A stretch of DNA of 32,000 nt from Candidatus Auribacterota bacterium (GCA_023136205.1 JAGLRQ010000064.1:9526-41525); one strand, 5' to 3'; shown: positions 8,631-26,200, counted from the stretch's first letter. Numbers and translations are program-made. The notes: generated by a model from the sequence alone, not told the origin.

Positions 8631-8644
8631 AGGAAAATTACGAT

Positions 8645-11044
8645 ATGCTAACCAACGGAACAAAAAGACGCATTGATACAGCAAGGGATATCCTTGTCGG
8701 AAAACTCCCTGACCCCAAGACACAGGTTGAACAGATTACCATAGCTCTTATTTATAAATTTATGGACGATATGGACAAACAGTCTGAGGAATTGGGAGGA
8801 AGACCCAAATTTTTTACCGGTGAATACAAGAAATACTCATGGAGTAAGATTTTCGATCCTCGTGTGAGTGGGCATGAACTTGTTGGTTTATATGGCGAAG
8901 CTGTTCAGCGGATGAATCAGAATCCGAATATCCCGCAGTTATTTAGGGATATTTTTAAAAATGCTTATTTGCCGTATCGTGATCCTGAAACCTTAAAAAG
9001 TTTTCTTAAATGTATTGGCGAGTTTGAATATGACCATAGCGAGAAATTAGGAGATGCCTTTGAGTACCTGCTTTCTGTAATGGGCTCACAAGGCGATGCC
9101 GGACAGTTTAGGACGCCCAGACATATTATTGATTTTATAGTGAAGGTGGTTGACCCAGGAAAAAACGAGACTATTCTTGATCCCGCCTGCGGTACGGCCG
9201 GATTCTTGATTTCTTCGTATAAGCATATCTTAGAAAAAAATAAAAAAGACGGCCGGGTACATTTAACTCCAGCTCAAAAGAAAAGGCTCATTGAAAACTT
9301 TTCAGGTTATGATATTTCGCCGGATATGGTGAGATTGTCATTGGTTAATATGTATCTGCACGGGTTTAAGAATCCCAAAATCTATGAGTATGATACATTA
9401 ACCTCAGAGGAAAAATGGCAGGAAGTATTTGATGTAATATTAGCAAATCCGCCGTTCATGAGCCCAAAAGGCGGGATAAGGCCGCATAAACGGTTTAGTG
9501 TGCAGGCAAAGCGTTCGGAGGTGCTTTTTGTTGATTATATTACTGAGCACTTAAATCCTAACGGCCGGGCGGGCATTATTGTTCCCGAAGGCATTATCTT
9601 TCAGTCAGGCACTGCTTATAAGAAACTGCGCAAGATGTTAGTCGACCGTTCACTTTATGTGGTTGTATCTTTGCCCGCGGGAGTGTTTAACCCTTACTCC
9701 GGAGTTAAGACATCAATATTGATGTTGGATAAAAATTTGGCAAAAAAGACGAATAGGATTTTATTTATAAAAATCAACAATGATGGCTTTGGGTTGGGCG
9801 CACAGAGAAGAGAGGTTAAGGGAAGCGATTTGCCATTGGCTTTAGAAGTAATCACGAGATACAAGCAGAGCATTATTGAAAATAAAGAATTTGAGTTCAG
9901 TTCTGATGAAGCGAAGCTTGCCTCTCTGGTTGAGCAAACAAAAATCGCAGAAAGTGGAGATTATAATCTTAATGGTAATCGGTATTCAGTTTCAGAAATA
10001 ACTACAACAGAATATCCAGTGGTGAAATTAGAGGAAGTGGCGAAGATTATCGCAGGGCAATCGCCAGAAGGAAAATATTATAATTCTAAAAGTAAAGGAA
10101 CTCCTTTTTATCAAGGGAAAACAGATTTTGGGAATATTTATCTTGGCAAACCTAGTAAGTGGACTACACGTGTTACTAAGGTCGCTGTTGCTAATGATAT
10201 TTTGATGTCAGTCAGAGCGCCTGTTGGCCCTGTGAATATTTGTAGCGATAAAATATGTATAGGAAGAGGTCTATCTGCTATTCACGTTGGAGATAGGATT
10301 AATTATAAATATTTATTTTATCTTCTGAAATCTAAAGAAAATGATATTAAAGGCGGTGGTGGTTCTGTCTTTGATAGCATAAGTAGAAAACAGATTGAAA
10401 ATATAAAAATCCCCCTTCCCTCGCTTGAAGTGCAGGAACAGATTATTGCCGAACTGGACAGTTATCAGAAAATAATCGAGGGCGCGTGTCAGGTTGTCGA
10501 AAACTACAAACCGCATATTGATATTAATCCTGATTGGGAAATGGTGGAGTTTAAAAAAGTTTGTAGCTTTGAATATGGAAGTAGTTTACCTTCAAAAAAT
10601 CGAAAAGGCACTAAATATCCAGTTATGGGATCAAATGGTATTGCTGGTTATCATGATGATTATATAGTAAAAGGCCCTGCGATTATTATTGGCCGTAAAG
10701 GGTCAGCCGGAGAAGTTGTATGGGTTGACTCAAATTGTTTTCCAATTGATACAACATATTATGTTGAGCTGAAAGATAAATCATATAGTTTCAAATTTTT
10801 ATATTTCGTTCTACAAGGTCTTAACTTACCACAATTAAAAGGTGGTGCAGGTATCCCTGGCTTAAACAGAAACGATGTATATAGGATATATAAGTTGCCT
10901 TATCCGTCCGTTGATATCCAAAAAAGAATTGTTGCCCAGATCGAAAAAGAACAAAAAGCAGTTGAAGCCACAAAAGATTTAATCACGCTCTTTGAACAAA
11001 AAATAAAACAAAAAATCAGAGAGATTTGGGGTAAAGAAAAATGA
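8645..11044 (+). CDS. hsdM: type I R-M methyltransferase fused to a complete two-TRD specificity subunit (HsdM-HsdS fusion)
   Basis: AAGGAAA lies upstream of the ATG. N-terminal HsdM part: FRTPRHIIDF, motif I LDPACGTAGFL, MYLHG, motif IV NPPF (9446-9457). From ~nt 10007 there are two HsdS-like target-recognition domains (VKLEEVAKIIAGQSP...; VEFKKVCSFEYGSSLP...). Each is followed by a helical conserved region (LPSLEVQEQIIAELDSYQKII; PSVDIQKRIVAQIEKEQKAVEATKDLI). Confidence 0.85.
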   Translation: MLTNGTKRRIDTARDILVGKLPDPKTQVEQITIALIYKFMDDMDKQSEELGGRPKFFTGEYKKYSWSKIFDPRVSGHELVGLYGEAVQRMNQNPNIPQLFRDIFKNAYLPYRDPETLKSFLKCIGEFEYDHSEKLGDAFEYLLSVMGSQGDAGQFRTPRHIIDFIVKVVDPGKNETILDPACGTAGFLISSYKHILEKNKKDGRVHLTPAQKKRLIENFSGYDISPDMVRLSLVNMYLHGFKNPKIYEYDTLTSEEKWQEVFDVILANPPFMSPKGGIRPHKRFSVQAKRSEVLFVDYITEHLNPNGRAGIIVPEGIIFQSGTAYKKLRKMLVDRSLYVVVSLPAGVFNPYSGVKTSILMLDKNLAKKTNRILFIKINNDGFGLGAQRREVKGSDLPLALEVITRYKQSIIENKEFEFSSDEAKLASLVEQTKIAESGDYNLNGNRYSVSEITTTEYPVVKLEEVAKIIAGQSPEGKYYNSKSKGTPFYQGKTDFGNIYLGKPSKWTTRVTKVAVANDILMSVRAPVGPVNICSDKICIGRGLSAIHVGDRINYKYLFYLLKSKENDIKGGGGSVFDSISRKQIENIKIPLPSLEVQEQIIAELDSYQKIIEGACQVVENYKPHIDINPDWEMVEFKKVCSFEYGSSLPSKNRKGTKYPVMGSNGIAGYHDDYIVKGPAIIIGRKGSAGEVVWVDSNCFPIDTTYYVELKDKSYSFKFLYFVLQGLNLPQLKGGAGIPGLNRNDVYRIYKLPYPSVDIQKRIVAQIEKEQKAVEATKDLITLFEQKIKQKIREIWGKEK

Positions 11045-11907
11045 CTACTGAGGAAATAGATCAAAGAATTAAAGGGTTAAGAGATTTAAATTTAAAAAAT
11101 GAAATGTCCAAAGCTATATTTGAAGAGGTCTGGGATTTAATGAAGATTGGATATAAATGTATACACTTCCCGGGCTATCATAAATATGTATATCGAGCCA
11201 GGAAAAATGAAAAAACAAAAAACAAATTTACGTTTTTTAAACATGTAAAGAAAATATGGTGCCGCAATCCTGAGGATGTATTGGATTTTGGACGTGTACA
11301 TTGGCCAAAACATCCTGTTTTTTATTGTAGCGGTTCATTGAAAACTGCAATATTAGAAATAAAGCCGGATTATCACGGCTTAGTTACTGTTATGAGATGT
11401 CGGAGGAAAAACTCGCATAAGATTGAATCTGTTGCTTTCGGATTTCCTGATAGAGCAAAATTTATAGACGGAAAAGGCAAGATAATTAATTGGGGTGAGT
11501 ATAAAGAAGTAAAAATCGGGTTAAGTAAAGGCCAGGCTCAAAAGAATAATAAAATTGATAGATTTTTGAATGAAGTCTATCGGGATGAAGATAAAAATAT
11601 AGACTCGTACGGAGATGATAAATATAAGATTACTGCAGCGATTGCAAAAATGTACTTTGATAATCCTGCTAAGAATTCACATAAACTGGATTGTATATGT
11701 TATCCCAGCGTTAGTGAAGTGAAAGGGGCTACTAATTATGCTTTTACCAAAAGGGTTGCGGATACGATTTTAGAGCCGGACAGTTTTTATGTTTTTGAGA
11801 TATGTCCGGGTGAGAAGTTTGGAAAGTTTGCGCTTAAACTAATTTGTTTTTCTATGAATGTTGATATGACAGGAAAAATTGCGTGGGAAAATATAATTAT
11901 AAAATAA
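11041..11907 (+). CDS. RES-domain protein (putative NAD+-targeting toxin/effector)
   Basis: The start overlaps the hsdM-S stop as ATGA (11041-11044). YVYRAR...FGR(85)VHWPKHPVFYCSGSLKTAILE(106)I...KYKITAAIAK...LDCICYPS(223)VSEVKGATNYAF matches the RES family pattern (lyRa..., GRfn.pg.pvlY.a.s..tAl.E, Y..t..ia...G.dGi.yPSv....g.N.v.f). Confidence 0.6.
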   Translation: MTTEEIDQRIKGLRDLNLKNEMSKAIFEEVWDLMKIGYKCIHFPGYHKYVYRARKNEKTKNKFTFFKHVKKIWCRNPEDVLDFGRVHWPKHPVFYCSGSLKTAILEIKPDYHGLVTVMRCRRKNSHKIESVAFGFPDRAKFIDGKGKIINWGEYKEVKIGLSKGQAQKNNKIDRFLNEVYRDEDKNIDSYGDDKYKITAAIAKMYFDNPAKNSHKLDCICYPSVSEVKGATNYAFTKRVADTILEPDSFYVFEICPGEKFGKFALKLICFSMNVDMTGKIAWENIIIK

Positions 11908-11935
11908 AATTATTATCGAGAAAAGTAGGGATGGT

Positions 11936-11965
11936 TTAACAATCTTAAAATTGGCATTCTTTAAT
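11936..11965 (+). promoter_or_regulatory. candidate sigma70-type promoter for the SIR2-HerA-KTSC unit
   Basis: TTAACA (11936-11941), 18-nt spacer, TTTAAT (11960-11965), in the 133-nt gap upstream of the AAGGAGA RBS and ATG 12041. Pattern match only. Confidence 0.35.
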
Positions 11966-12040
11966 CATCAGGCAGTGAAGCTCATTGAAGCGTGAGTTAT
12001 GTGTAAAAGGGTTATTTAAAGTACATAAGGAGAAAAGTTA

Positions 12041-13237
12041 ATGATAAAATTGAATCTCGTAAGAGAAATCCGAGAACTAAAGAACCAGCTCTCTTATTCG
12101 AAAAAATATAGTTTCTTTTTTGGCGCAGGCACATCATGTGCACTTGGCATTCCTAATATAGCTACTTTAACAACAGAGGTGGAAAAGGCTCTAAAAGATA
12201 ATTCATTAAATTATTTTAAAAAAATAAAAGAAGATCTAACATCTACATACCCCGATAAAATCATAAATATCGAAGATATTCTTAATCAGTTACGCCAAAT
12301 CAGGTCAATCACTGGGGAAAAAGATGATAAAAGTTATCTGGATATAAGTGGAAAATCAGCAACAGAACTTGATAGTGAAATTTGCAAAAAAATATATGCT
12401 GTCATTAGCACCAGTGAAACAACGGCGGATCTTTCTAATACCAAGAAGTTTTTTGCTTGGTTGAATATGCTAAATAGGGATTACTCAAAAGAAATATTTA
12501 CATCAAATTATGATTTAATTATTGAAAAAGCTCTGGAAGAAATAAAAACTCCATACTTTGATGGATTTGTAGGGTCATATGAACCTTTCTTTTGGCAGGA
12601 AAGTATAGAAAGATTCGTTGATAAGTCTGATTTAACACAAAATTGGATCCGGCTATGGAAGGTTCATGGCTCATTAAGCTGGTTCTGGAAAAAAAATAGC
12701 GAATCAGGTTCTCATAATATCATCCGTGTCGGCATAATCTCAGATATTAAAAATATTGATAATGAACTGGTTATCTATCCATCAAAAGAAAAATATGATT
12801 CTTCAAAGAAGCAGCCGTTTGTCGCTTATTTTGATCGATTAAAAAATGTCCTTTTGAAGGGAGAACTCCTTTTTATCTTTACGGGGTATTCATTTTCTGA
12901 CCAGCATATCAATGAGATTGCATTTAATTCTCTTCGACAAAATAATCGATTATTTATTTTAGTGTTTTTTTATCAGGACTCTGAAGTGGAAGAATTATTT
13001 CGAGTATCTTCATCATACCTAAATTTGACAGTATTTGGCCCTACGAAGGCAATTATAAATGGAACATTAGGTGAGTGGGAATATAACGAAGACGATTTAA
13101 AACCAAACGAGAAGTCAGATAGCTATTGGGATACCGAAAATAAGCAATTGATACTCGGGGATTTTAATCAGCTAATTAATTTTCTAATTACAAACTCTGG
13201 GAAAAAAGAAAACATAGAGGCAATAGCAAATGGATAG
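12041..13237 (+). CDS. SIR2-family (SIR2_2-type) NADase component of a SIR2-HerA defence system
   Basis: Strong RBS AAGGAGA. FFFG(28)AG(30)TSCALGIP dinucleotide-binding motif, TSN(156)YD(158)LIIE, KVH(209)GS(211). Size (398 aa) and pairing with HerA are typical of this system. Confidence 0.85.
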   Translation: MIKLNLVREIRELKNQLSYSKKYSFFFGAGTSCALGIPNIATLTTEVEKALKDNSLNYFKKIKEDLTSTYPDKIINIEDILNQLRQIRSITGEKDDKSYLDISGKSATELDSEICKKIYAVISTSETTADLSNTKKFFAWLNMLNRDYSKEIFTSNYDLIIEKALEEIKTPYFDGFVGSYEPFFWQESIERFVDKSDLTQNWIRLWKVHGSLSWFWKKNSESGSHNIIRVGIISDIKNIDNELVIYPSKEKYDSSKKQPFVAYFDRLKNVLLKGELLFIFTGYSFSDQHINEIAFNSLRQNNRLFILVFFYQDSEVEELFRVSSSYLNLTVFGPTKAIINGTLGEWEYNEDDLKPNEKSDSYWDTENKQLILGDFNQLINFLITNSGKKENIEAIANG

Positions 13238-15014
13238 TGACATTACCTACCTTGGGAAAATAATACGGGTTGATTCGAGTACTGTTGAAGTTGAAGTTTC
13301 AGATGATATCCCTTCCGCTGCACCAATTATAAACGGTCGTTTATATAAAATTGGACAAATTGGTACTTTTGTAAAAATGCCAATGGGAAATATTACAACC
13401 TATGGAATAGTATCTTCTGTTAGCAATACTCCAGGGAAACCAGATGACAATCAGGCTAGGCAGATTTTTGGATCACGTTTTCTTAGCGTTCAGCTTGTCG
13501 GTGAAAAAATTGGGGATGATGATTTTGAGAAAGGCATAGGGACGTACCCTACTATTAATGATGCAGTTCATATTGTAGTTGAAAAGGACTTGTTTAATAT
13601 ATATGGGGAAAAAGATACTGGCTCTATAGAAATAGGAAAGCACTCCTCTTCTGATAATTTATCTGTATGTGTAGATATTCATAAACTCATATTGCGTCAT
13701 TGCGCGATATTAGGTTCTACTGGAAGTGGAAAATCAAATACAACTGTTAGTATTCTTAAGGCAATATTAAACAATTATCTTGGTTCAAGAGTTATTTTAG
13801 TTGATCCACACGGTGAATATGCTTCAGCATTTCCAGATGCGAAAGTTTATAAAATCAATGATTCTTCCGATCCGTTGTATATTCCTTTTTGGTTGATGAA
13901 TTTTGATGAATTGGCATTTTTTCTTGTCGGAGCTAAACCAACTGATGATCAAAGGCCAGAGTATCGATTATTAAGGGAATGGATAACGGGTTATAAAAAA
14001 GAAAATTATCAACTCAAATCAGGTGATGTAAATCGAGACTTTATTACTGCCGATTCGCCAATTCCTTTTAATGCTAGAAAACTTTGGCATGACATGAACT
14101 GGTGGCTGAATGCTACTTTCTCAGAATCTACAAAAGACAAACAAACAAAAGATAATGCGCAATTACAGAAGGATGAAGATGGCAATCCCAAGAATGGTAA
14201 TTATGACGAATTAAGACAAGCAGAATTTAAACCCTATCCAATGGGGAGTAATGCACCATATAAATCAAAACACCAAGATTTTTATTCATATGAAAAAAAG
14301 CTTCTATCACGGCTCAAAGATTCTCGGTTTGATTTTATGTTTCATCCTGGAGATTACAAAGATAAATCTTCCTTGAAGGATTTGCATAATTTGTTAAATG
14401 ACTGGATAGGAAGTGATAGTAAATTGGTAATACTTGACCTTGGCGGAATCCCATTTGAGGTTTTAGATATTGCAATCGGACTAATTACAAGATTTGTGTA
14501 TGACAGTATGTTTTGGGGGCGGAATGAATCTTACACGGGAAGAAATAGACCTCTTTTGCTTGCTTATGAAGAAGCTCACACTTATTTGAACAAGAATGAT
14601 AATAACAGTTATTCAAAAAACGCGGTTGAACGAATTTTTAAAGAAGGTCGTAAATTTGGTGTTGGTGCGTTAGTTATATCGCAAAGACCTTCTGAAATTT
14701 CAGAAACCATTCTGGCTCAAATTGGAACATTCATAGCTTTGCGATTAACAAATTCAGGAGATCAGTCTATTGTTAAATCTTCATCACCTGACAATCTAAA
14801 TAGCTTGATCGATTTATTACCTTCTTTGAGAATTGGTGAGGCCGTTATTGTTGGTGAAGCGATCAAAATACCTTCTAGAATTAGAGTAAAACTTAATAAT
14901 CCAAGACCAACGAGTGATGACCCTAAACTTATAGAGTGCTGGAGTAAAACACATTCCACCTCTGATGATAAGTACAAATCGGTAGTAACCAAAATAAGAG
15001 AACAAAGGAGATAA
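13230..15014 (+). CDS. herA: HerA-type hexameric ATPase/helicase of the SIR2-HerA system
   Basis: 8-nt overlap with the SIR2 gene (ATGGATAG). N-terminal HAS-barrel-like segment (GKIIRVDSSTVEVEV...IGQIGTFVKM...YGIVSSV). Walker A GSTGSGKS (aa 162-169), Walker B-like RPLLLAYEEAH, and RKFGVGALVISQRPSE. Confidence 0.88.
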   Translation: MDSDITYLGKIIRVDSSTVEVEVSDDIPSAAPIINGRLYKIGQIGTFVKMPMGNITTYGIVSSVSNTPGKPDDNQARQIFGSRFLSVQLVGEKIGDDDFEKGIGTYPTINDAVHIVVEKDLFNIYGEKDTGSIEIGKHSSSDNLSVCVDIHKLILRHCAILGSTGSGKSNTTVSILKAILNNYLGSRVILVDPHGEYASAFPDAKVYKINDSSDPLYIPFWLMNFDELAFFLVGAKPTDDQRPEYRLLREWITGYKKENYQLKSGDVNRDFITADSPIPFNARKLWHDMNWWLNATFSESTKDKQTKDNAQLQKDEDGNPKNGNYDELRQAEFKPYPMGSNAPYKSKHQDFYSYEKKLLSRLKDSRFDFMFHPGDYKDKSSLKDLHNLLNDWIGSDSKLVILDLGGIPFEVLDIAIGLITRFVYDSMFWGRNESYTGRNRPLLLAYEEAHTYLNKNDNNSYSKNAVERIFKEGRKFGVGALVISQRPSEISETILAQIGTFIALRLTNSGDQSIVKSSSPDNLNSLIDLLPSLRIGEAVIVGEAIKIPSRIRVKLNNPRPTSDDPKLIECWSKTHSTSDDKYKSVVTKIREQRR

Positions 15015-15016
15015 TA

Positions 15017-15229
15017 ATGGACAGAAACAACATTGATTCTTCAATGATTCGGAGCATTGGCTATGACGCAAACAGCTCTACTCTTGAAATAGAATTCAAT
15101 AGTGGTGCAATTTGGCAGTATTTTGATTTTCCAGAATCATCTTGGTGTGAGTTCAATACCTCAGATTCTAAAGGAAAGTTTTTTCTTCGAGAAATAAAAA
15201 AGCAATATTCTGAATCGCAAGTTGGATGA
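15017..15229 (+). CDS. KTSC-domain small protein
   Basis: ATG lies 2 nt after the herA stop, with AAGGAG inside the herA 3' end. IRSIGYDANSSTLEIEFNSGAIWQYFDFPESSWCEFNTSDSKGKFFLREIKKQY fits the KTSC pattern (i.svgYd....L.veF.sG.vY.Y.dvp...y..l..a.S.G.yfn..Ik..Y). Confidence 0.65.
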   Translation: MDRNNIDSSMIRSIGYDANSSTLEIEFNSGAIWQYFDFPESSWCEFNTSDSKGKFFLREIKKQYSESQVG

Positions 15230-15492
15230 AAAGACATAAGGCACTACACCTGACCGCTATTCCGCTATGCTCATAGCGGCGGATGAGTTTGGTTAGGTGG
15301 ATAGTTGGGGATAAGTACATTGTGTTTATCCTGTTAATATAGAGTAATAAGAACATTTGATTTATACATGAATTGGTAAACATATAAAATGGATGACCTT
15401 AGAAAACAAGAGGGAGTTAAGCCCAGCTGCACAAACCAGTGCTACAGTTTGCCACACACTTGTTTAGTCCATCTATCAGGATTATAATAACG

Positions 15493-15957
15493 ATGACACA
15501 AGAAATGACAGAACTCAAAATATTCTTTGATTTGCCAAAGACTTTTGAGATACAGAACATTAAGCCCCTTATGGGGCTGACGGGATTGTATTTTATTTTC
15601 AATGGAAAGACAAAAATTCAATATCCTTTCAAGAAATCGCGACTGCTATACATTGGAATGAGCGAGAAAAAAACAAACAGCATAGGGAGCCGTCTAGCAG
15701 GTCATTTTGAAGGAAAAAGTAAAAACGTTGGAATTGTCAACTATAGAAAAACTAAACAGTTGTTTTTTACCTACATCAATTTCGAGATGCTTCGCAAATT
15801 CTGGAACCACAGAATAGAAGACCTTGAAAGCTACTTCATTCTGGACTTTGTTGAGAAGTACGGAGTTTATCCCATTTGTAACAATAAGTCTGGTTACGAA
15901 ATATTGAACAAAAAACTAAACGCCAATTTTATTATAGATTGGTTATATTTTGAATAA
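15493..15957 (+). CDS. stand-alone GIY-YIG nuclease-domain protein
   Basis: Counting from ATG 15493: G31-L-Y33, Y53-I-G55, R67 (SRLAGH71), E112 (DLESYFILDF) and N130 (YPICNN) reproduce the order of GIY-YIG catalytic residues. The ORF track's longer version starts at GTG 15439, so the start is uncertain. Confidence 0.7.
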   Translation: MTQEMTELKIFFDLPKTFEIQNIKPLMGLTGLYFIFNGKTKIQYPFKKSRLLYIGMSEKKTNSIGSRLAGHFEGKSKNVGIVNYRKTKQLFFTYINFEMLRKFWNHRIEDLESYFILDFVEKYGVYPICNNKSGYEILNKKLNANFIIDWLYFE

Positions 15958-15968
15958 ACACTTAAGTT

Positions 15969-16178
15969 ATGAATAAAAAAATAAAAAGTGGTAAAGATGT
16001 CATTGATGAGTTCTTCTCAGAAATTCTAAATATAGAAGACGTTGACCAAAAGACAGTGGAAAAGCTGGTTGAATTGTATAAAGAGAATAACCTAACTGAC
16101 AGAAAGATTCAGAACGCATTAGAGGAACTGAAACAAGCAGAACTTAATTCAAAAGCGCGAAACGATGGCAAAGATTAA
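15969..16178 (+). CDS. 69-aa acidic helical protein, unknown function (possible middle component)
   Basis: 11 nt downstream of the GIY-YIG gene, and its 3' end overlaps the ATPase gene by 14 nt. The sequence is predicted all-helical by eye (DEFFSEILNIEDVDQKTVEKLVELYKENNLTDRKIQNALEELKQAEL). I recognise no family. Confidence 0.55.
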   Translation: MNKKIKSGKDVIDEFFSEILNIEDVDQKTVEKLVELYKENNLTDRKIQNALEELKQAELNSKARNDGKD

Positions 16179-18573
16179 ATCAATCAATATAAGCGGAATA
16201 AGAGGTGTTAAAGACCTTTTGACACTTGACATCAACAAGAAATCCATTTTGATTTATGGCGACAATGGAACAGGAAAGAGTTCTCTGACTGATGCCTTTG
16301 AATGGTTATTTTACGATCGTATTGGTCATTTATCCAATGAAGAAATTGGAAGAAAAGGTCGAGACGCCTTAAGAAACATTTTCGTTCCAGGCAATGAAGA
16401 TGGTTATATCGAAATCAAGTTTGATAATAACAAACTGGACATAAAAAAGTCAATCGACAGTTCGATAAGTGCTTCTACTTCTAACATATCAGATGAATTC
16501 AATGACTTTATTGCCGCCTCACAATCCGAAAATCTTATTCTTCGCTACCGTGACTTAGTGCAATTTATTATTGCGAGCAAAACCGAGAAACTAACAAAAC
16601 TGCAAAACATTATTGGCTTTTCAGAGGTCGCTGATGTCAGGAGCTTACTGAAGAAGAATGCCGGACGAATTGCCCGCAATATCAAATCTTCTAATTATGA
16701 CAACCAAAAGAATGTGAAGCAATCAATAATACTTGAAAACCTTGGGAGAAATGCCCATTCAGATGAGCAACTTTTTGAAGGAGCGAATGAACTCATTAAG
16801 CCATTGAAGCTTGGTATCGAAATTAAATCTCGTGAGGATATAAAGAAAGTTTTAAAGAAAATTGAGACCAAAGAGGACAACGCTTTACTTGAACAAATCA
16901 ACTTTTTCACAAGAATGTGGGAGGTCTTATCAGAAGTTGTTGGAAATGTTGACAATATTCATGAAAGCTACAAATCATATCACACCATTGGCAAAGAGTT
17001 GAAAAAAGACCCAGAGAAGATTAAGAAATTGCAGCTGCTTGCTCTTTTGAAAGAAGGCCAGTCAGTTCTTAAGAATGATGTTGTGCAGGACAACTATTGC
17101 CCACTTTGTCAACAAGAAAAGAGCAAGGTTCAACTAATTCAAGAGTTGAACAAAAGAATTGAGGAATTGGAACAACTTGCTGAAGAGAAGAACAAATTAG
17201 ATGAGCAGGCAGAAGAACTTGAACAATTGATTCAGCCAAACATTAACATGATAGACAGTTTGCTAAGGGAGAAGCTATTTAAGAAGGATAAATACGAAAA
17301 ATTGAAAAGTCAGATTGCAGAAGTCAAGAAATCATTAAACAGCTTTCTTTATGAGCTTAAAAAAGGTTTATCGGTTGCTTTTGCAGAGCCAGGCAAAATC
17401 AAGATTGATAAAAACGAATTTTATATAATTGTCAAGCAATCACAAGATACCGCAAAAATTCTTACGGAAAATCAATCATCAAACATAAAGTTCCAGATTT
17501 ATACTAAGTTGTCCCAAGCGGTAACTGCTTATGAAGAATATCAAAGAATAGAAAAAGAGCAAGGCATCCTAAGCAGGCAGCAAGTTACGTTTGAAGGGCT
17601 TTATGCTGATTTCATAAAAAGACAAGAAGAAGCCCTCAACGTATTCCTGACAATGTTCTCTCAAGACATCGATGACTATTATACAACTATGAACCCCAAC
17701 GAGAGAGTTGAGGACATAAAACTTGTGCCAATCAAAAAAGATGGTGATTTGGTAGGAATTACTATTGAATGCAGCTTTTTTGATGAGGCTAAAACTTTTC
17801 CAATTGCTTATTTGAGCGAAAGTCATCTCAATTGTCTTGGACTTTCGTTCTTTTTAGCTTCTGTCAAAGCATTTAACAAGGAGAACGAATTTTTCATATT
17901 GGATGATATTATATCCAGTTATGACAGGTCTCACCGAGCAAGATTTGCTAAGCTGTTGACCGAAAAATTCTCTGACTACCAAGTTATTCTTTTAACCCAT
18001 GAACAAGAGTTCTTTGAACTGGTGTCCAGTGATGTAAAGAACAAAGGATGGTCAATTAAGAATTTCAAGTGGACAAAAAATAGTGGTGCAGGTGTAGAAA
18101 AAGGAACGGTTAAAATCAAAGAACGAATTCTTAAGAAATTTAAAGAGAAGAATATAGATGGTCTTGGTAATGATATCAGAGTTTATACGGAGAAGGTTAT
18201 GAAAGAAGTCGCATTTAATATAGAAGCCCCTGTAGCATTCCGATATAATGCACTTAATGAGAAGCGAATGGCCCCAGAATTATTGAATGCTGTTCAAAGT
18301 CGAATTTCAAAAAAAGGAAATGGGCTAAAAGAGAAGGCCAACATTACAAGGGTGAAAGGTATGCCTATGTTCATTGGAAATACGACTTCTCACGACAACG
18401 AATTCAATGAGAGTATTGAGGACTTGGAAGTGATGTGGGAAAATATTGAGAACATGATCCGCACATTTTACTGTAACAGTTGTAGGAAGTTTATGTCAGT
18501 TAAGTATTTCGACAATGTAGAGAGTAAAATCAGGTGTGGATGTGGTAATCTGACCTATGATTGGGAAAAATGA
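16165..18573 (+). CDS. SMC/Rad50-like ABC ATPase with CxxC zinc hook and PrrC/RloC-like C-terminal domain (AAA_13/RloC-like or LmuB-like)
   Basis: Walker A GDNGTGKSS (aa 32-40). Roughly 400 aa of heptad-rich helix with C312-P-L-C315 (nt 17098-17109) in the middle. ABC-signature-like LSESHLNCLGLSFFLA, Walker B FFILDD (D580, D581; DDIISSYD resembles the AAA_13 DDPisSLD), H-loop VILLTHE. The C-terminal domain has R672-x3-E676, H743, and C770-x2-C773...C791-x-C793. Confidence 0.8.
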   Translation: MAKIKSINISGIRGVKDLLTLDINKKSILIYGDNGTGKSSLTDAFEWLFYDRIGHLSNEEIGRKGRDALRNIFVPGNEDGYIEIKFDNNKLDIKKSIDSSISASTSNISDEFNDFIAASQSENLILRYRDLVQFIIASKTEKLTKLQNIIGFSEVADVRSLLKKNAGRIARNIKSSNYDNQKNVKQSIILENLGRNAHSDEQLFEGANELIKPLKLGIEIKSREDIKKVLKKIETKEDNALLEQINFFTRMWEVLSEVVGNVDNIHESYKSYHTIGKELKKDPEKIKKLQLLALLKEGQSVLKNDVVQDNYCPLCQQEKSKVQLIQELNKRIEELEQLAEEKNKLDEQAEELEQLIQPNINMIDSLLREKLFKKDKYEKLKSQIAEVKKSLNSFLYELKKGLSVAFAEPGKIKIDKNEFYIIVKQSQDTAKILTENQSSNIKFQIYTKLSQAVTAYEEYQRIEKEQGILSRQQVTFEGLYADFIKRQEEALNVFLTMFSQDIDDYYTTMNPNERVEDIKLVPIKKDGDLVGITIECSFFDEAKTFPIAYLSESHLNCLGLSFFLASVKAFNKENEFFILDDIISSYDRSHRARFAKLLTEKFSDYQVILLTHEQEFFELVSSDVKNKGWSIKNFKWTKNSGAGVEKGTVKIKERILKKFKEKNIDGLGNDIRVYTEKVMKEVAFNIEAPVAFRYNALNEKRMAPELLNAVQSRISKKGNGLKEKANITRVKGMPMFIGNTTSHDNEFNESIEDLEVMWENIENMIRTFYCNSCRKFMSVKYFDNVESKIRCGCGNLTYDWEK

Positions 18574-18701
18574 AATGGAGTCTAATTAGTATAATTTGAA
18601 CACTTCCCATATTGTTGAAAAATTCCCTTACTCTCCTTCCCATTGTAACCACCTTTCTTCCGTGCTAAAATATTTGAATGAAACAGGCTGAAAAAATGAA
18701 T

Positions 18702-18849
18702 CCCCCCAGATTTGCATTAGCAAATTTAACAGGGGGACTAGCAAAGATGGAGGGGAACTGGTGGAATGATGCCCCTAGATTTGTATTAGCAAATCTAGCA
18801 GGGGGACTTTATCCCCCTAGATTTTGCAAATCTGACCAGGGGGACTAGC
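18702..18849 (+). repeat. three tandem C5/G5-clamped hairpin repeats (family 2)
   Basis: Copy A 18702-18742 CCCCCCAGATTTGCATTAGCAAATTTAACAGGGGGACTAGC. Copy B 18772-18809 CCCCTAGATTTGTATTAGCAAATCTAGCAGGGGGACTT, with a perfect 9-bp CTAGATTTG/CAAATCTAG stem. Copy C 18813-18849 CCCCCTAGATTTTGCAAATCTGACCAGGGGGACTAGC. All have the same orientation. Confidence 0.9.
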
Positions 18850-20243: not shown

Positions 20244-23200
20244 ATGCAAAAAACAAAAAGCATAATTTCAGTCTTTATACTTTCTTTTATATCTCTAATC
20301 CTAAACTCCTCAGCAGTTTTGGCAGTTGATGTTGATATGGAAGCAGGCACTACTGCCACTTATACTTTAACGGTTAAAAACATTGGTATTGTTCCTATGA
20401 CCGATATAGGGGGAGAAGCTTCCATAGTAAGTTTAGGCCAACACGGCAAATTTTCCATCAAAAAGGGCAAATTTTCCATTTCTTCGATTTCTGAGGGAAA
20501 TGAAGCTATTGTGAAATTTCAAGTTACAGCGCCTCCCCAGCCCGATCCGGAAAATCCTATAATTATGAAGGGTGAAGCAACTTTTACTATAACAAAGGTA
20601 AAAGATCAAGACGGCAAGAAAGCTCCTTTTATTTGTACTGATGGGAAAGATACAATTAGCGCTGATCCGACGTTTATCCAACGTACAAGAAAAGCTATTA
20701 TTACCGCAGGTGGCGGTAGCCCAATAAATTCATATAACAAGTATTATAATTATCCGCTGCCTCAAGAAATTTCTGTTAATCCATCTTTACCAAATGATAT
20801 TTCCATATATTATATGTACCGGTTTACATCTTTCGATATGGAAGCGCAGATTACAATATCTGAAGGATCCTTGTCGGAAGATACTGTGATAGCCATAAAT
20901 AATACAGATAAATCAAATATTGAGATCCAGTTAGTCAAAGCCCAATATGACACTGAGCTATCGGCCTATAATCAGGGGATTAAATCCGAAGTTAATACTT
21001 CTATCAACATTGATACCCAGTCCTATATAAATGAAGCAGTAACAAGAGGTATGGATGAACAGACTGTTACGGATTACATTAACAATACCATTTCAACTGC
21101 TCAAAATAATCTAAATACTGCAATTGATAATTTGATTAATACCACCCACAACACATTACTTCCAGCTTTAGAACCTGTTAATGTCCAGATAAGCAGTAAG
21201 GTAGGCGCAGTTATTAATGATGTCATTGTTAAAGAAAATCAGTTTATCAGAGATAGAGAAGATGCTATTCAAAAAGCCCAAGTGGAAAACAATATAGATG
21301 ATTTAGCCGCACAACTTGAAGCTAACGGCGCCTCAGAGGAAATTATTAATCAAATCCAAGAGGAAGCAGAAGAAAAAGCCGAATCCCAATCAGCTATAGC
21401 TATAAGCCTCTTGGAAGCCTCTAAATTTAACGATATAAAAACACTTCACGATGATGGAAATCTTTTTATCCAAAACTTAATCTTTGACACTAATAAAACT
21501 GTTACTTCGAAAAATAATACTTTAAGACAGCAAATTCTTGATGGAAAAGACAATTCTCAATCCAATGCTGAAAAGGATATTATCACCTATATCAGAGGTA
21601 TTACCGATACTGTTTTATCCATAGCACAGATTAGTTTTCCCGTCGAAGCTCAAAGTATATCAGATGCCGTTAATTTTAGCGGTACGGCCTCTGATGAAAA
21701 TATAAAGGAATATACCTTAAGTTATTTTGATGGCGCCAACTGGAATATTGTCAATAACTCCATTACTTCAGTTACTAACTCCGCATTGGGCATCTGGAAT
21801 ACTAATACTGTAGCTAATGGTAACTATCCTGTTAGGCTAAGGGTAGTAGATACTGCTGGCAATGTAAGCAAGGCTACTATTAATGTAACGGTTAACAATC
21901 AGGACTTAACTGTACCGGTTATTACCATAGCTTCTCCGGCCTCGGGGGAAGAATCGGCCGGTGTTATAACTATCAATGGTTCTATCACCGAGAACTATTT
22001 ATCCAGTTACATAGTAGAATACTTCACAGAAGAAGAACCTGAAAACTGGATCCAGATAGGCAGCACTCATAAAGTGATTGATTCCTCAGGCATCTTAGCT
22101 TCTTTCAGCCCATTATTATTATCTAAAGGCAATCATACCCTTAGAATAACTGCTACCGACACAAGCAATAATTCCTCAAACCAGACGATAACTGTAAATA
22201 CTGGTCACAAATTCAACAACACAGGCGGGCAGCTCTATGCCGCTAACACCTTAGCAGATGACAGGAGGTTAGAATTTGCCTATAAATCATTTGATTTTAA
22301 GCCCAATAATCTAATGCTTAATCAACCCGCAGTCATTAAACTTCACTACACAGATGAGGAACTCAGTGACCGCGGTTATGAAGAAAATTTATTAAACATC
22401 TTTTTGTATGATGAAGAAACTTTTACATGGGAGGTAATCTCAACGCAAATTGATTTTGAAAACAATGTTCTAACGGCCAACATAAATAAATTAGGTGTTT
22501 ACGCTATAAAAGAAGACAAGCCGGATCTGGTTGATGTTGTTTTACCAAGCGCCGAAATTACTAATTCTGCTTATAACTCTTCTACCGGTATGATTGATAT
22601 AACCGGCACAGCTAATGACGAAAACTTAGAGTCCTATGTAGTAGAATACGGAGAGGGAGACATTCCTTATTATTGGATTAGAGTAGAAAATTCACCTAAA
22701 ATAATTATCAACAGCGTGCTGGCTGCTTTTGAGGCAAAGAATCTACTGCCTGGCAGTTACTCTGTAAGATTAACTGTTTACGACCAGGCGGAAAACAGTT
22801 CTCAAGCTGTCTCAAGCTTTATTGTTGGAGAAGATAAGATTATCAATCTATACACTTCATCTGACTATATTGCCCCTGAAGTAACCTCGGAAGATGTTCC
22901 CAAGGAAGTAACTATAACCTATCAAATTTTACAGGATACTTATAGCACGGTTAAAATTAAAGATGGTGATGCCAATGTGATTACTTTATTAGACAATCAA
23001 TTTCAAACTACCGGGATTCAACAAGTAGTCTGGGATGGGAAAGATGTAAATAACCAATTTGTCTCAGCTAAAACCTATACCATTGAAATAAGTACATCTG
23101 CAGGTACACAATTAACCACGCCCATAGAGGTAAAAGATTTAATTGCTAAAATATCTGTCCCCTATGAAAACTCTCTTGTCAGGGGCTCGGTACCTGTTTT

Positions 23201-26200
23201 TGGTTTAGCCTGTGGTAAAGATTTTAAAGAATATACGGTAGAATATGGCGAGGGTGATAACCCGGCTGTCTGGACACCAATTCTCACCGCTCAATATCCT
23301 CAAAATGTAGATGCAGAGTATGCTGACTTAGCTTCAGGAGATGAGACTATCTATGGTAATTTGGCCACCTGGGATACAGGTCTCGCGAATTACACTTATG
23401 GAGACTGGCTGCTAGATTTAAACGGAACTTATACGCTGAGATTAACAACTACTAACAATGCTGATAAGCAGGAAGTAAGTATTGTCACAGTTATGGTTGC
23501 CCGGGTTATAACCAATATTTATGGAGGTACAGCCATAAGCCCTGATGGCAAAATAATCTTAACCATCCCTGAACAGGCTATTCAGGATGATTTTGAACTT
23601 ATATCCATTTTGCCGGCAGATAATCAAACGGTATCTATTGATTCCAGCTATCAATTGGTGGGCAGCATTTATGAAATAAGGCCCCCTGGTGAAATATTTA
23701 CTAAAGATGTTACTCTGGAAATGAGTTATACTGAAACCGAGCTGGGTAGCCTTGATGAAACAAAACTTGCCGTCTATGCCTACAATCCCACAACCCTAAA
23801 TTGGGATTATCTAACTACTAATCAAGATTTGGCAAATAATAGGTTAAATACTGTTTTAAGAGAAATCACCTGGCCATATGCTTATTACGCTATTTTAGCT
23901 AAAATTTCTACACCGGATAAACCTGTACTTTACAACTTATCCAATGCCAACAACATCCAACTGCAATGCGTTACTATTTTCGGCATGGCAGGAAAGGGAG
24001 AGACGATTGAAATTTTTGTCAATGGCCAAAGCAAAGGGACAACCCAGGCTGATAAAGATACGGGTTATTTTAGTTTAAGCAATGTTTTATTAGATACAGG
24101 CACAAATGTTGTTACTGCTGTTTCTACTGACCAATTTGGGCAGACAAGCAGTTCTTCTGACAATATAACCATAACTCAGTCTGAAACTCCGCCTTTGTCT
24201 GTGGTTTTAGTTTCCTTTAAAGATAGTACCTACTCAGCGGACTATACAGAACCTGTTTATTTGAAAGACACCTTATATATTGAAGTAGTGGGAGTGGATG
24301 CTGATGCAAATACTCTGGATGCCACAAGTCTAACCTTAACAAGCAGTATTACGGATTCAACTGGTATAATTATTCAACTTTTGGAAACAGATTATAATTC
24401 CGGGATTTATAGAGGATTTGCTTATATTGATTCAGTCAGTAATACTGCCAACAGGGAAATAGCTGCTCAATCTAATGGTGAAATTATTACAGTTACCTCA
24501 CTGGTTGATAATGCTAAATTTGATACCTTAACTGTAGTTGATAATGTGCCCCCGCAGGTTCCAGCTATCACTTCCTCTACCCATCCTTCAATTTGCCAAA
24601 GTACATTTGAATCTGGCTTTGATGAATGGGTCAACAGGGACGGTGAGATAGGAGCGGCTTTATATTTAAATGACACGCAAAGAGCTGATAGTACCAACTG
24701 TCTGGAACTGGTAAATGCGGAATACGGCGGCAATTTTGCATCCAACGTTATAACTACACCATTTGATGCGGAAGAGTATCCTATAATAAGTTTTGATTAT
24801 AAGATTAAAGAAGATACAAAAATAAACTTCCTTGTTAAATTAGAAAATGATGATATCTGGTATGACATTGTCTTTACCGACACCGCCAAAAATTATTGGC
24901 GCATAAACATGGAGCAAATTGGAACTATTGAAGGAGTTGTAAAAGATGATACATGGCAGAATATTTCCTTTAACCTTCCTGAGATGCTAAAAACCAAAAC
25001 GGATAATTTCCAGGTGGAAGAGATAATTATGGCTGACTGGGATACAGCCGGTTATATGAAGTTAGTTTATGGTACCAACCCTGCCGGCTCTGCTTATTAC
25101 ATTGACAACTTCATGATTAACAAACGCGGTTTCGCGGACAGGAACCCGCAATTTACCATTTTAGCCCCAGCCGATTCAAGCGGCATTGCCGGTTACAGTT
25201 TTGTTTTGGGTCAGATACCGAATACTATCCCTGATATGGTAGTTGACAGTACTACCAATGTGGTCAATTTCACCGATGTTGACGATGGCCTCTGGTATTT
25301 TCACGCCCGAGTTCAGGATGGTTCAGATAACTGGTCAAAAACTAACCATTATAAAATTTTTATAGATACTAACGGGCCCTATGCTGACACCCCTGCACCT
25401 GCGGCCTATGCTTCTTCAGGCGACCCAACTATCAGTATTCATTTGACTGATAATCAGGGTTCGGGAGTTGACACTCAAACAGTAAGGCTTAAAGTTGGAG
25501 GCTCTGAATATGATATCAACAACCCGGCTTTAAGTTTCAATAAGGAAACAGAGATCTTAACCTTTGACCCCTCTGCTATAGGAATTGTCTGGCCTGACCA
25601 ACACTTAATCAATGTAGAACTAATGCAGGCAAATGACTATTTGGGTAACATTTTTCAAAATCTTCTTAGCTGGGAATGGACATTAGATTATTCACTTGAT
25701 ACCATATCGCCAGAAGCGCCGGAGATTATTTCACCAACAGGCCATAATCTTACTTTTAACAAAGTTACCTTTATGTGGAAGGCAGAAGATGCTAACAGCA
25801 TTGCTGATTACTCCTTTATCCTGGACCAGAATCCGGAAACTATTCCCGATGATGAAGGCACTGGGCTTATTACCTCCAAAATATATGATTTAGCTATCGG
25901 AACCTACTATTTCCATGTTAGAGCCAAAGATAGGCCGGGCAACTGGTCCGAAACTACTCATTATGAAATAACAATTAGTGAGAACTCTTCTTTATTAATT
26001 AACGACTTTGATGACGGCTCAGATCCGAATGAAGCAGGCGGTTCTTCCGGTACCTGGAATAGTAACGGTGCTGTATGCCAGGCTTTTTACTATAATACAG
26101 ATTTGAACAATGTATATAGCGGCAGTGGTTACTCATTACAGCTTAACTATGATGTTACTCCGGTAGATACCTGTGCCGGTTACTGGACGGACATTTGTAT

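Follow-up and report, generated by a model that had tools for sequence, protein, structure and literature searches.

What three closely packed genes in an uncultured bacterium do together, and whether they belong to a described defence system, is the question raised by a 32,000-nucleotide (nt) stretch of Candidatus Auribacterota DNA (GCA_023136205.1 JAGLRQ010000064.1:9526-41525; the whole stretch is referred to as the window). The genes encode a small GIY-YIG-type protein, a short acidic protein and an SMC/Rad50-like ATPase. The first-pass annotation of the window had proposed an unclassified module of this composition, and the three open reading frames (ORFs), their spacing and the 263-nt spacer before them were found as it had described them. 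The trio (hereafter the triad) proved to be a recurrent, mobile cassette. Judged by sequence, it most likely represents a defence system of a new kind, directed against phages or plasmids. In the reading that we prefer, to which we give an even chance, its three components form a horizontally mobile defence cassette around an RloC-like core, with a GIY-YIG effector added in trans. The genes and their parts are as follows (aa, amino acids; pI, isoelectric point).

15493-15957, + strand: gene 1, 154 aa from ATG; basic, pI 9.5; predicted single-domain GIY-YIG nuclease fold
15969-16178, + strand: gene 2, 69 aa; acidic, pI 5.0; helical
16165-18573, + strand: gene 3, 802 aa; ABC ATPase and C-terminal domain
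16165-18084, + strand: gene 3 residues 1-640, Rad50/LmuB-like ABC ATPase with a coiled-coil insert
18085-18570, + strand: gene 3 residues 641-802, basic (pI 9.0) helical C-terminal domain and zinc ribbon
15373-18576, + strand: extent of the shared cassette, from blastn of the window against 87 related loci

Genes 1 and 2 are separated by 11 nt, and genes 2 and 3 overlap by 14 nt. The 263-nt spacer before gene 1 is counted from the stop codon of a KTSC-domain gene at 15229. A GTG at 15439, 54 nt 5' of the ATG, would yield a gene 1 product of 172 aa; the ATG was taken as the start because the orthologues measure 150-158 aa.

Recurrence and mobility of the triad

A scan of one genome per species (185,579 species genomes) yielded 157 stretches encoding a gene 1 relative, and 80 loci were kept. 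Gene order was counted over 84 related loci, blastn homology over 87, and gaps and overlaps over 74. Gene 2 directly followed gene 1 in 84 of the 84 loci, and gene 3 came next in the same order in 82, the remaining two stopping at a contig edge. The gap between genes 1 and 2 was mostly 2-28 nt, and genes 2 and 3 overlapped in 72 of 74 loci. The pairwise-identity matrices of the three proteins were correlated (r = 0.83-0.90 for 60 distinct loci; 0.90 for genes 2 and 3), and the three genes thus co-evolve. The comparison across genomes suggested in the first-pass annotation therefore bore out the triad as a recurring module that sits beside known defence genes, a pattern well beyond what chance would give. 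Mean pairwise identity was 72% for gene 1, 49% for gene 2 and 48% for gene 3. Such slow evolution of gene 1 is uncommon among defence effectors and points to constraint on many of its surfaces or to a toxicity that is tightly controlled.

The kept loci were distributed over more than 10 phyla (Bacteroidota, Desulfobacterota, Planctomycetota [Scalindua and Brocadia], Chloroflexota, Cloacimonadota, Acidobacteriota, Ignavibacteriota, Calditrichota, Saccharibacteria, Elusimicrobiota, and Pseudomonadota), and gene 1 was 65-90% identical across phyla. The compact triad (3.2 kb) is common in Bacteroidota and uncultured environmental lineages. In a collection of 5.8 billion proteins, gene 1 had 1541 homologue clusters, the best 120 of which showed 75-93% identity and 150-203 aa, and gene 3 had more than 560 clusters of ~803 aa.

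DNA homology between the window and all 87 loci was limited to 15373-18576; it mostly began near 15490-15515 and stopped at most 3 nt from the stop codon of gene 3. As the homology is confined to this interval, the cassette moves on its own, and the triad is a discrete mobile cassette landing in variable defence islands. A search for a target-site duplication gave no common word of 8 nt or more flanking the cassette, and gene 1 was found neither in INPHARED (50,697 phage records) nor in IMG/VR. On plasmids of Brucella anthropi and Aliiroseovarius crassostreae, the ATPase is 28-30% identical to gene 3 and the small gene is kept, with a gene 1 orthologue (hidden Markov model [HMM] E ~1e-55, 40-42% identity) on the opposite strand. 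That the association outlasts the inversion of gene 1 is strong evidence of functional linkage.

Two loci with insertion sequences (IS) were recorded separately. In Draconibacterium orientale (L002, CP007451), a set made up of an IS91/Y2-transposase gene, a 74-aa ORF and a 214-aa gene occurs in two identical copies, one on either side of the triad (region 7263-16469), which suggests mobilisation or duplication by a rolling-circle IS; MmeI-type restriction-modification (R-M) and Wadjet genes flank the region. The upstream 74-aa ORF was considered as a conserved fourth gene of the triad and rejected, being part of the IS91 copies. In JGI metagenome contigs (L089-L091), an IS66 splits gene 3 into a 554-aa N-terminal part and a 172-aa ORF of the C-terminal domain. 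The split gene adjoins a ZorA-like gene, and inverted IS66 and IS91 copies flank the whole region.

Gene 1, a minimal GIY-YIG nuclease

The motifs of gene 1 are located as follows on the + strand.

15583-15591: GLY
15616-15627: IQYP insert, invariant
15649-15657: YIG
15691-15693: R67
15703-15705: H71
15826-15828: E112
15880-15882: N130

The catalytic set named in the first-pass annotation (GLY33, YIG55, R67, H71, E112, and N130) was recovered at these residues and is conserved in homologues. Among 41 gene 1 homologues, G31-L32-Y33, I54-G55, R67, H71, E112 and N130 were invariant and Y53 was present in at least 90%; after distant members (25-40% identity) were added, Y53, G55, R67, H71 and E112 were invariant and N130 was present in at least 90%. 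The spacer between GIY and YIG is usually ~10 residues long. In gene 1, 20 residues were counted from Y33 to Y53, confirming the long spacer that had been claimed, and the insert carries an invariant Y44-P45. The catalytic tyrosine may be Y33 or Y44.

The Pfam match of gene 1 itself was sub-threshold (GIY_YIG_2, E 0.0074); among 22 diverse family members, GIY_YIG_2 was detected in 17 and PF01541 in 8 (best E 4e-5). The AlphaFold2 model (predicted local distance difference test [pLDDT] 84.5, predicted template modelling score [pTM] 0.83) has a strand-strand-helix core as in the GIY-YIG fold. The top four Foldseek matches in PDB were the N-terminal domain of AtGRXS16, which we take to be the domain described as a GIY-YIG endonuclease, the GIY-YIG domain of UvrC (twice) and T4 EndoII. 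We also take the order of the motifs and the R-to-H, H-to-E and E-to-N spacings to be close to those of I-TevI. Homologues are labelled 'GIY-YIG nuclease family protein' by PGAP. By motif set, motif order and modelled fold, gene 1 can thus be assigned to the GIY-YIG nuclease superfamily. It has no second domain, in agreement with the bare nuclease described at first. The family, with 70 clusters at 50% identity among 1.84 billion representatives, is small and isolated.

Other assignments of gene 1 were discarded. A phmmer search against PDB gave no match, and the gene 1 profile retrieved spurious PDB matches alone (a designed repeat protein and urokinase). The PADLOC candidate PDC-M57 was rejected because it is a two-gene candidate and the match was marginal: PDC-M57B matched partially (E 5e-4, residues 1-83 against positions 1-79 of 211), and PDC-M57A matched neither gene 2 nor gene 3. 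CMoRE, a GIY-YIG defence enzyme, is unrelated, being a single-protein type IV restriction enzyme.

Gene 3, an ATPase with a putative nuclease tail

The motifs of gene 3 on the + strand are listed from the ATPase part to the C-terminal domain.

16258-16281: Walker A, GDNGTGKS (K38)
17098-17109: zinc hook, CPLC (residues 312-315)
17809-17832: signature, LSESH
17890-17907: Walker B, FFILDD
17989-18006: H-loop (H612)
18163-18204: R672-x3-E676
18256-18282: NEKR701-x3-E705
18376-18402: GN739-x2-S742-H743-DNE
18472-18543: CxxC...CxC

Gene 3 is predicted to encode a zinc-hook Rad50/SMC-like ATPase. Walker A, the CPLC hook, the signature, Walker B and H612 were invariant across its orthologues; among 70 homologues, CPxC was found in all 70 and the DD of Walker B in 64, which agrees with the CPLC noted early on within an 802-aa ATPase. 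Pfam returned SMC_N (E 8.8e-15) and AAA_23 (E 4.5e-11). The SMC_N match is stretched, aligning gene 3 residues 4-621 with model positions 2-206 of 220; the ATPase head is therefore split by a long insert, estimated at ~380 aa. CPLC falls in the middle of this insert, between the two head halves, and zinc binding is predicted.

The best defence-family matches of gene 3 were two PADLOC LmuB models, of which PDLC03859 aligned with residues 3-636 over profile positions 4-608 of 611 (E 5e-26). All 15 divergent orthologues scanned, with identities as low as 36%, likewise had LmuB as their best family (E to 3e-28). The scores are low, at ~90 bits over 630 aa, and a search of the gene 3 family profile against PDB gave no chain named LmuB or DdmC at E <= 10, generic SMC/Rad50 heads alone being retrieved. 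Models of the PADLOC candidate PDC-S06 matched the C-terminal head in 14 of the 15 orthologues (best E 4e-13), partially and more weakly than LmuB.

The LmuB profile stops before the C-terminal domain (641-802; ~160 aa). With overall identity at 36%, residues N669, R672, Y674, E676, K680, N695, N698, E699, R701, E705, N739, S742, H743 and D753 were invariant and the CxxC...CxC cluster was kept. The residues R701-x3-E705-x37-S742-H743 correspond to the nuclease motif of the RloC family, Arg-X3-Glu-X36-52-His, in which Ser often precedes His (PMC2610378). This published motif fits 61 of 65 distinct gene 3 orthologues versus 1% of shuffled tails, and N-E-x-R-x3-E-x31-38-S-H was found in 63 of the 65. 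Weak Pfam AAA_13 matches were obtained on fragments of divergent gene 3 members, one of which is named 'wobble nucleotide-excising tRNase' by JGI. Searched by itself, the domain gave no meaningful Pfam, PADLOC or PDB profile match. Its AlphaFold2 model (pLDDT 63.6) is a five-helix bundle with a small beta ribbon, for which the two most probable Foldseek matches in PDB (probability 0.77-0.80) were 1o3u, annotated as HEPN, and 2q00, presumably also a HEPN protein; lower matches with weak E-values included the HepT toxin, another HEPN toxin, Csm6 (twice), AF_0298 and the sacsin HEPN domain. The domain may still be an RNase or may have turned into a regulatory or docking domain.

Single loci deviate from this pattern. 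H743 is replaced by Tyr in L084, and gene 3 measures 782 and 773 aa, with the zinc ribbon missing, in L059 and L082; these variants may be decaying copies or sequencing errors. Candidates for stand-alone C-terminal domain proteins turned out to be a contig-end fragment and the IS66-split gene.

Gene 2 and the two-gene core

Gene 2 matched no Pfam, PADLOC or NCBIfam family. Its orthologues measure 60-70 aa and occupy the position of LmuC, between the effector and ATPase genes; neither gene 2 nor 13 divergent orthologues gave an LmuC or Pfam match. At six of six remote loci examined that carry gene 3-like ATPases, acidic ORFs of 57-69 aa precede the ATPase gene and overlap its start; overall, comparable acidic ORFs ahead of remote gene 3 homologues without gene 1 measure 57-74 aa.

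A tblastn search against plasmids returned 51 records with gene 3-like ATPases, two of which carry gene 1. The gene 3 HMM aligns over its full length (E 1e-48 to 1e-67) with the ATPases of Halorhabdus tiamatea, Rhizobium etli and Phaeobacter inhibens (817-822 aa), which have CPxC near residue 311 and a C-terminal domain homologous to that of gene 3 (E 2e-8 to 3e-5). The remote C-terminal domains keep R672-x3-E676, E705, N-x3-H-x-N-E and the zinc ribbon. The gene 2/gene 3-like pair lies between pglX and pglZ of BREX-5 on H. tiamatea pHTIA (L095, 2875-5539), between DarT and a RES toxin near a TIR-domain protein in Roseibium, after a DUF262 protein and before HipA in Bradyrhizobium, and near an N6-methylase and a patatin-like phospholipase in R. 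etli. As the pair occurs without gene 1, gene 2 and gene 3 are concluded to be the ancestral unit, to which the GIY-YIG gene was added in one clade. Of the recruitment once proposed for this module, the later addition of the nuclease is thus retained and the recruitment of gene 2 as an adaptor is not, gene 2 being instead an ancestral partner of the ATPase.

The two-gene family lacking a GIY-YIG gene (L095, L096, L094, L098, and L099) was found on bacterial and haloarchaeal plasmids, with ATPases of ~820 aa, and may correspond to PDC-S06. On a Natrinema salinisoli plasmid (L097, 3868-6005), a related ATPase of 654 aa appears to be without the C-terminal domain, the match ending at query residue 645; a phospholipase-D-like gene lies two genes downstream of it, which may be an effector swap.

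Comparison with known systems

Pfam, NCBIfam and PADLOC v2 held no named system matching the triad, and no paper in the library searched joined GIY-YIG to Lamassu or RloC in one system; the module stays unclassified, as first annotated. RloC and PrrC have an N-terminal ABC ATPase followed by a C-terminal helical nuclease domain, the latter putative in gene 3. RloC and gene 3 both have a Rad50-like coiled coil with a CxxC zinc-hook insert, and both occur in or near R-M and defence loci. All N-terminal ABC motifs of RloC (Walker A, signature, Walker B/D-loop, and switch His) are present in gene 3, as is R-x3-E-x36-52-H with Ser before His. The RloC of G. kaustophilus measures 804 aa (gene 3, 802 aa), with hook residue C291 (C312) and R692, E696 and H737 (R701, E705, and H743) (PMC2610378). 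In RloC, a zinc hook and a DNA-break-responsive ATPase are published to gate the nuclease. RloC acts alone, whereas gene 3 is accompanied by two obligatory partner genes and has G-N-x2-S-H in place of Rx4-6H. The terminal zinc ribbon of gene 3 is a further candidate difference. RloC and PrrC were absent from the 25 most frequent PADLOC families for 15 gene 3 orthologues.

The order of effector, small middle protein and SMC-like ATPase is that of Lamassu, ABC-three-component (ABC-3C) and DdmABC systems (LmuA-LmuC-LmuB), and a DNA-structure sensor licensing a nuclease is the logic proposed here as well. Long Lamassu LmuB is characterised by ~800 aa, a Walker B of the form hhhhDD and one CxxC (PMC12663957). 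Gene 3 has all three features (802 aa, FFILDD, and one hook CxxC), but its length comes from the extra domain and not from a longer coiled coil. LmuA has an N-terminal effector and a conserved C-terminal docking domain, whereas gene 1 is a single 154-aa domain. Gene 1 gave no PADLOC LmuA or Pfam ABC-3C match, nor did LmuA rank among the top families when 11 divergent orthologues of gene 1 were scanned. The middle protein here is 60-70 aa without similarity to LmuC or MC, the ATPase has its own putative C-terminal nuclease domain, and relatives of the triad include the two-gene form without a separate effector. The Lamassu effectors listed in a 2025 survey are Cap4, Mrr, protease, Sir2, FMO, HNH, SMEK, and lipase, with no GIY-YIG (PMC12663957).

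More distant likenesses were also considered. SbcCD/Mre11-Rad50, the published ancestry proposed for Lamassu, likewise pairs a zinc-hook coiled-coil ABC ATPase with a nuclease and has the gene for an ATPase-binding element just upstream of the ATPase gene; it differs in having the Mre11 phosphoesterase instead of GIY-YIG, a far longer coiled coil, no extra C-terminal domain, and vertical rather than mobile and patchy inheritance. PDC-S06, like PDC-M57 a 'guilt-by-embedding' candidate of PADLOC, has profiles of ~860 positions, like the remote two-gene ATPases, but is defined as a single gene, and PDC-M57 is a two-gene cassette of other families. PARIS (AriA-AriB), Gabija, Septu and OLD share an ABC ATPase sensor controlling a nuclease effector in a defence island, but their nucleases are of the Toprim or HNH type, a zinc-hook coiled coil is absent, and their ATPases resemble gene 3 at the level of the N-terminal P-loop alone.

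As far as these comparisons go, the triad is not a demonstrable member of Lamassu or RloC and appears to share the working logic of both. It is placed outside Lamassu because gene 1 lacks the LmuA C-terminal domain and gene 2 gave no LmuC match, and outside RloC because it has no family HMM match and is not stand-alone. The Lamassu-like gene order noted in the first-pass annotation is therefore accepted, and membership in Lamassu is not, gene 1 having failed as an LmuA and gene 2 matching LmuC in position but in no sequence search.

Proposed mechanism and alternatives

The preferred reading starts from what was observed: the genes present with their motifs intact, their strict co-occurrence and co-evolution, a mobile cassette and a setting in defence islands. 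The model adds that the proteins form a complex, what triggers it, that both nucleases are active and what phenotype results. Gene 3 would dimerise through its CPLC zinc hook and sense abnormal phage or plasmid DNA, such as ends or replication intermediates. Its HEPN-like C-terminal domain, with an Arg-Glu-(Ser)His triad of the RloC/PrrC type and a zinc ribbon, would be an RNase in cis, if still catalytic. Gene 2, translationally coupled to gene 3, would be the constant partner of the ATPase and would probably bind the heads or the base of the coiled coil, where LmuC or the Mre11/SbcD C-terminal domain sits in related machines. As gene 1 has no targeting domain, its DNase would have to be kept inactive by the complex until activation. 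Engagement of foreign DNA would cause an ATP- and hook-dependent switch that turns on the GIY-YIG DNase in trans (and the RNase in cis), so that invader or host nucleic acids are destroyed and the infection is aborted.

The two origins between which the first-pass annotation had hesitated were a new effector flavour of Lamassu and an RloC-like sensor with a recruited nuclease and an adaptor. The latter is favoured because the C-terminal domain carries the RloC triad and because gene 2/gene 3-like pairs occur without gene 1. A Lamassu (ABC-3C) variant, an unlikely reading but one that we take seriously, would have gene 1 as a minimal LmuA, gene 2 as a mini-LmuC and gene 3 as LmuB. The C-terminal domain of gene 3 would then be a docking platform replacing that of LmuA, and DNA-end sensing would free gene 1 to oligomerise and degrade DNA, as published for Cap4-type LmuA. 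The near full-length LmuB matches of gene 3 and its 15 orthologues (E 5e-26 to 3e-28), the fitting gene order, the long-LmuB marks (PMC12663957) and the modularity of published Lamassu effectors all speak for this variant. However, gene 1 has no LmuA-type C-terminal domain, the 60-70-aa gene 2 has no LmuC match, the LmuB scores reach only ~90 bits with no LmuB or DdmC chain retrieved from PDB, and 802 aa are reached through an added domain. The 13 invariant polar residues of the C-terminal domain, including the RloC-type triad, are unlike a passive dock; pairs without an effector gene occur, and GIY-YIG is not among the published effectors.

Two further explanations carry less weight. The GIY-YIG protein, rather than being the killer, could act first as a signal amplifier, breaking invading DNA so that the ATPase senses the ends and fires the C-terminal RNase, stopping translation. 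The RloC nuclease is indeed activated by a DNA-break-responsive ATPase, gene 1 was added to a core seemingly able to work alone, and it is more conserved than its partners (72% vs 48%); yet a 154-aa GIY-YIG domain has no visible means of telling foreign from self DNA, and the canonical HEPN Arg is missing in the C-terminal domain. Such amplification is improbable. Very improbable is a non-immune role, in which the triad would be a mobile SbcCD/Mre11-Rad50-like module for DNA processing or element maintenance (repair, recombination, or addiction), with GIY-YIG in the place of Mre11. Its patchy distribution (157 stretches in 185,579 species genomes) with high identity across phyla, neighbours from R-M, BREX, toxin-antitoxin and abortive infection (Abi) systems rather than repair genes, the absence of gene 1 from the phage and viral collections and a C-terminal triad domain without counterpart in SbcC all argue against such a role, whereas the Rad50-like architecture, the gene ontology label 'double-strand break repair' on remote homologues at NCBI and the frequent location on plasmids or beside transposases would suit it. 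A rather doubtful extension of the preferred reading is a dual-nuclease immune machine forming an evolutionary bridge between RloC (cis effector) and Lamassu (trans effector), with a HEPN-like tRNase tail, a GIY-YIG DNase and KTSC proteins as optional tRNA-related accessories; that one zinc-hook, DNA-end-sensing ATPase with a universal 60-70-aa partner would license both nucleases is put forward just as tentatively.

Several points count against a mobile defence cassette on an RloC-like core. The case is built on gene content, sequence comparison and predicted structures, and the defence-island context is a listing of neighbours, not an enrichment over a background. The GIY-YIG fold matches of gene 1 are weak (Foldseek E 0.06-2, target template modelling score 0.34-0.57). 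Neither full-length gene 3 nor its C-terminal domain matched Pfam AAA_13 (PF13166) or PADLOC RloC or PrrC at E <= 1, and the best defence family of gene 3 is LmuB, not RloC. The model of the C-terminal domain is mediocre, its catalytic loops being the weakest parts, and none of its fold matches has an E-value better than 0.65. The remote two-gene relative from R. etli does not retain R701. The Arg of HEPN Rx4-6H, recorded as conserved in PrrC and RloC by a HEPN survey (PMC3710099), is absent, G738 (G/A/V in orthologues)-N739-x2-S742-H743 being found instead; as this canonical Arg is missing, the C-terminal domain may be non-catalytic.

Genomic context of the triad

The first-pass annotation had placed the triad in a defence island, and the window does contain a Type I R-M R subunit, a fused M-S subunit, a RES-like gene and SIR2-HerA, the last scoring strongly in PADLOC (E 3.5e-129 and 5.9e-155). 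Two features lie immediately upstream of gene 1.

15017-15229, + strand: KTSC-domain gene, 70 aa; Pfam KTSC E 2.8e-23
15361-15390, + strand: weak sigma-70-like promoter match, TTTATA-18-TAAAAT, 9/12; from the consensus scan alone

The promoter and terminator scans of the window returned weak consensus matches alone; the promoter consensus does not cover Bacteroidota promoters, and the match is no evidence of function.

Further features of the window were recorded. A 288-aa ORF at 11041-11907, which may be an effector embedded in the R-M operon, shares 4 nt with the end of the fused Type I M-S gene; it has a partial RES-domain match (E 2.7e-7) and no PADLOC match. At 4395-5543, upstream of the Type I R-M genes, is a phospholipase D (PLD)-family nuclease with a C-terminal helix-turn-helix (HTH) (PLDc_2 E 3e-22; PADLOC DrmC-like E 2.5e-13), and no further DISARM genes were seen. 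Past the stop codon of gene 3, just beyond the cassette edge and before the ORF that follows, 18700-18849 holds three copies of a ~40-nt palindromic unit, ATCCCCC(C/T)AGATTTG...CAAATCT..CAGGGGGAC, which look like repetitive extragenic palindromic (REP) elements or miniature inverted-repeat transposable elements (MITEs). The last 250 residues of a 2962-aa ORF at 20244-29132 match the tandem carbohydrate-binding modules of a glucanase/chitosanase (E 6e-35); a surface protein is its probable product and would mark where the defence island ends.

At other triad loci, the neighbours vary: MmeI-type R-M, RhuM and Wadjet at one, an integrase and ImmA-like genes at another, and elsewhere AbiJ-caspase, a WYL-AAA pair and IS110, a transposase with a methyltransferase, or a ZorA-like gene. 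A SocA/Panacea-domain HTH protein, an SNase nuclease, DUF1016/YhcG, a HEPN-nucleotidyltransferase pair, an Apyc1-like lactamase and an OLD-family nuclease were also found. In a pooled PADLOC scan of 106 sequences (82 nearest neighbours and 24 gene 1 or gene 2 orthologues), strong matches were obtained to Type IIG R-M (E 1e-239), AriA (2e-40), PtuA, AbiLi, ATPase-Toprim, MADS, and PglX; LmuA and LmuC were not among the top families. No PADLOC family occurred in more than 5 of the 106 sequences, giving no conserved fourth gene among the nearest neighbours.

The KTSC gene had originally been grouped with SIR2-HerA. Homologues of it (41-45% identity) were found upstream of the triad in L037 (5320-5523), L038 (848-1051), L039 (5058-5261) and L040 (7593-7796), none of which has SIR2 or HerA. 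The gene before KTSC differs by locus; in L039 it is a TaqI-like methylase, and the order is methylase, KTSC, a 75-aa gene, gene 1, gene 2, and gene 3. A second family of ~75 aa was found right beside the triad in 15 loci. Its gene mostly precedes gene 1, with an overlap of 4 nt at the gene 1 start in two loci; in two other loci, it comes just after gene 3. Members are encoded at the following positions and in nine more loci.

L100: 7690-7914
L012: 9650-9874
L045: 7504-7716
L055: 9793-10005
L043: 10805-11029
L068: 13077-13301

The family consensus is MERYKN..GDSGV.AYEIG.D.I.VQFS.G..Y.Y...AG...VE.MK.LA..G.GLNSYIN. By hhalign, it is in register with KTSC over 52 columns at a weak E of 0.011, and no Pfam match is on record. 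KTSC-type proteins may be optional accessories of the triad, because the KTSC homologues and the ~75-aa family adjoin triads and L037-L040 lack SIR2-HerA. Against this, the KTSC gene of the window starts 3 nt after the HerA stop codon, outside the shared cassette, and most triads have no such gene. The position in the window fits the original grouping; the recurrence beside triads without SIR2-HerA does not. The KTSC domain is named after the lysyl-tRNA-synthetase C-terminal domain, and PrrC and RloC cut tRNA-Lys; this may hint at a tRNA link.

Implications

Bacteroidota and uncultured environmental lineages, in which the triad is common, are groups whose defence systems have seldom been tested. 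If the cassette does defend its hosts, its GIY-YIG effector would be new to the SMC/Rad50-like branch of bacterial immunity, and a single sensor would be coupled to one nuclease in cis and another in trans. The two-gene core, found in BREX-5 and toxin-antitoxin islands of bacterial and haloarchaeal plasmids, appears to be a sizeable uncharacterised family. Should the model be true, the triad and its relatives would offer a way to test how sensors derived from Rad50, RloC and Lamassu among them, acquire and swap their effectors.

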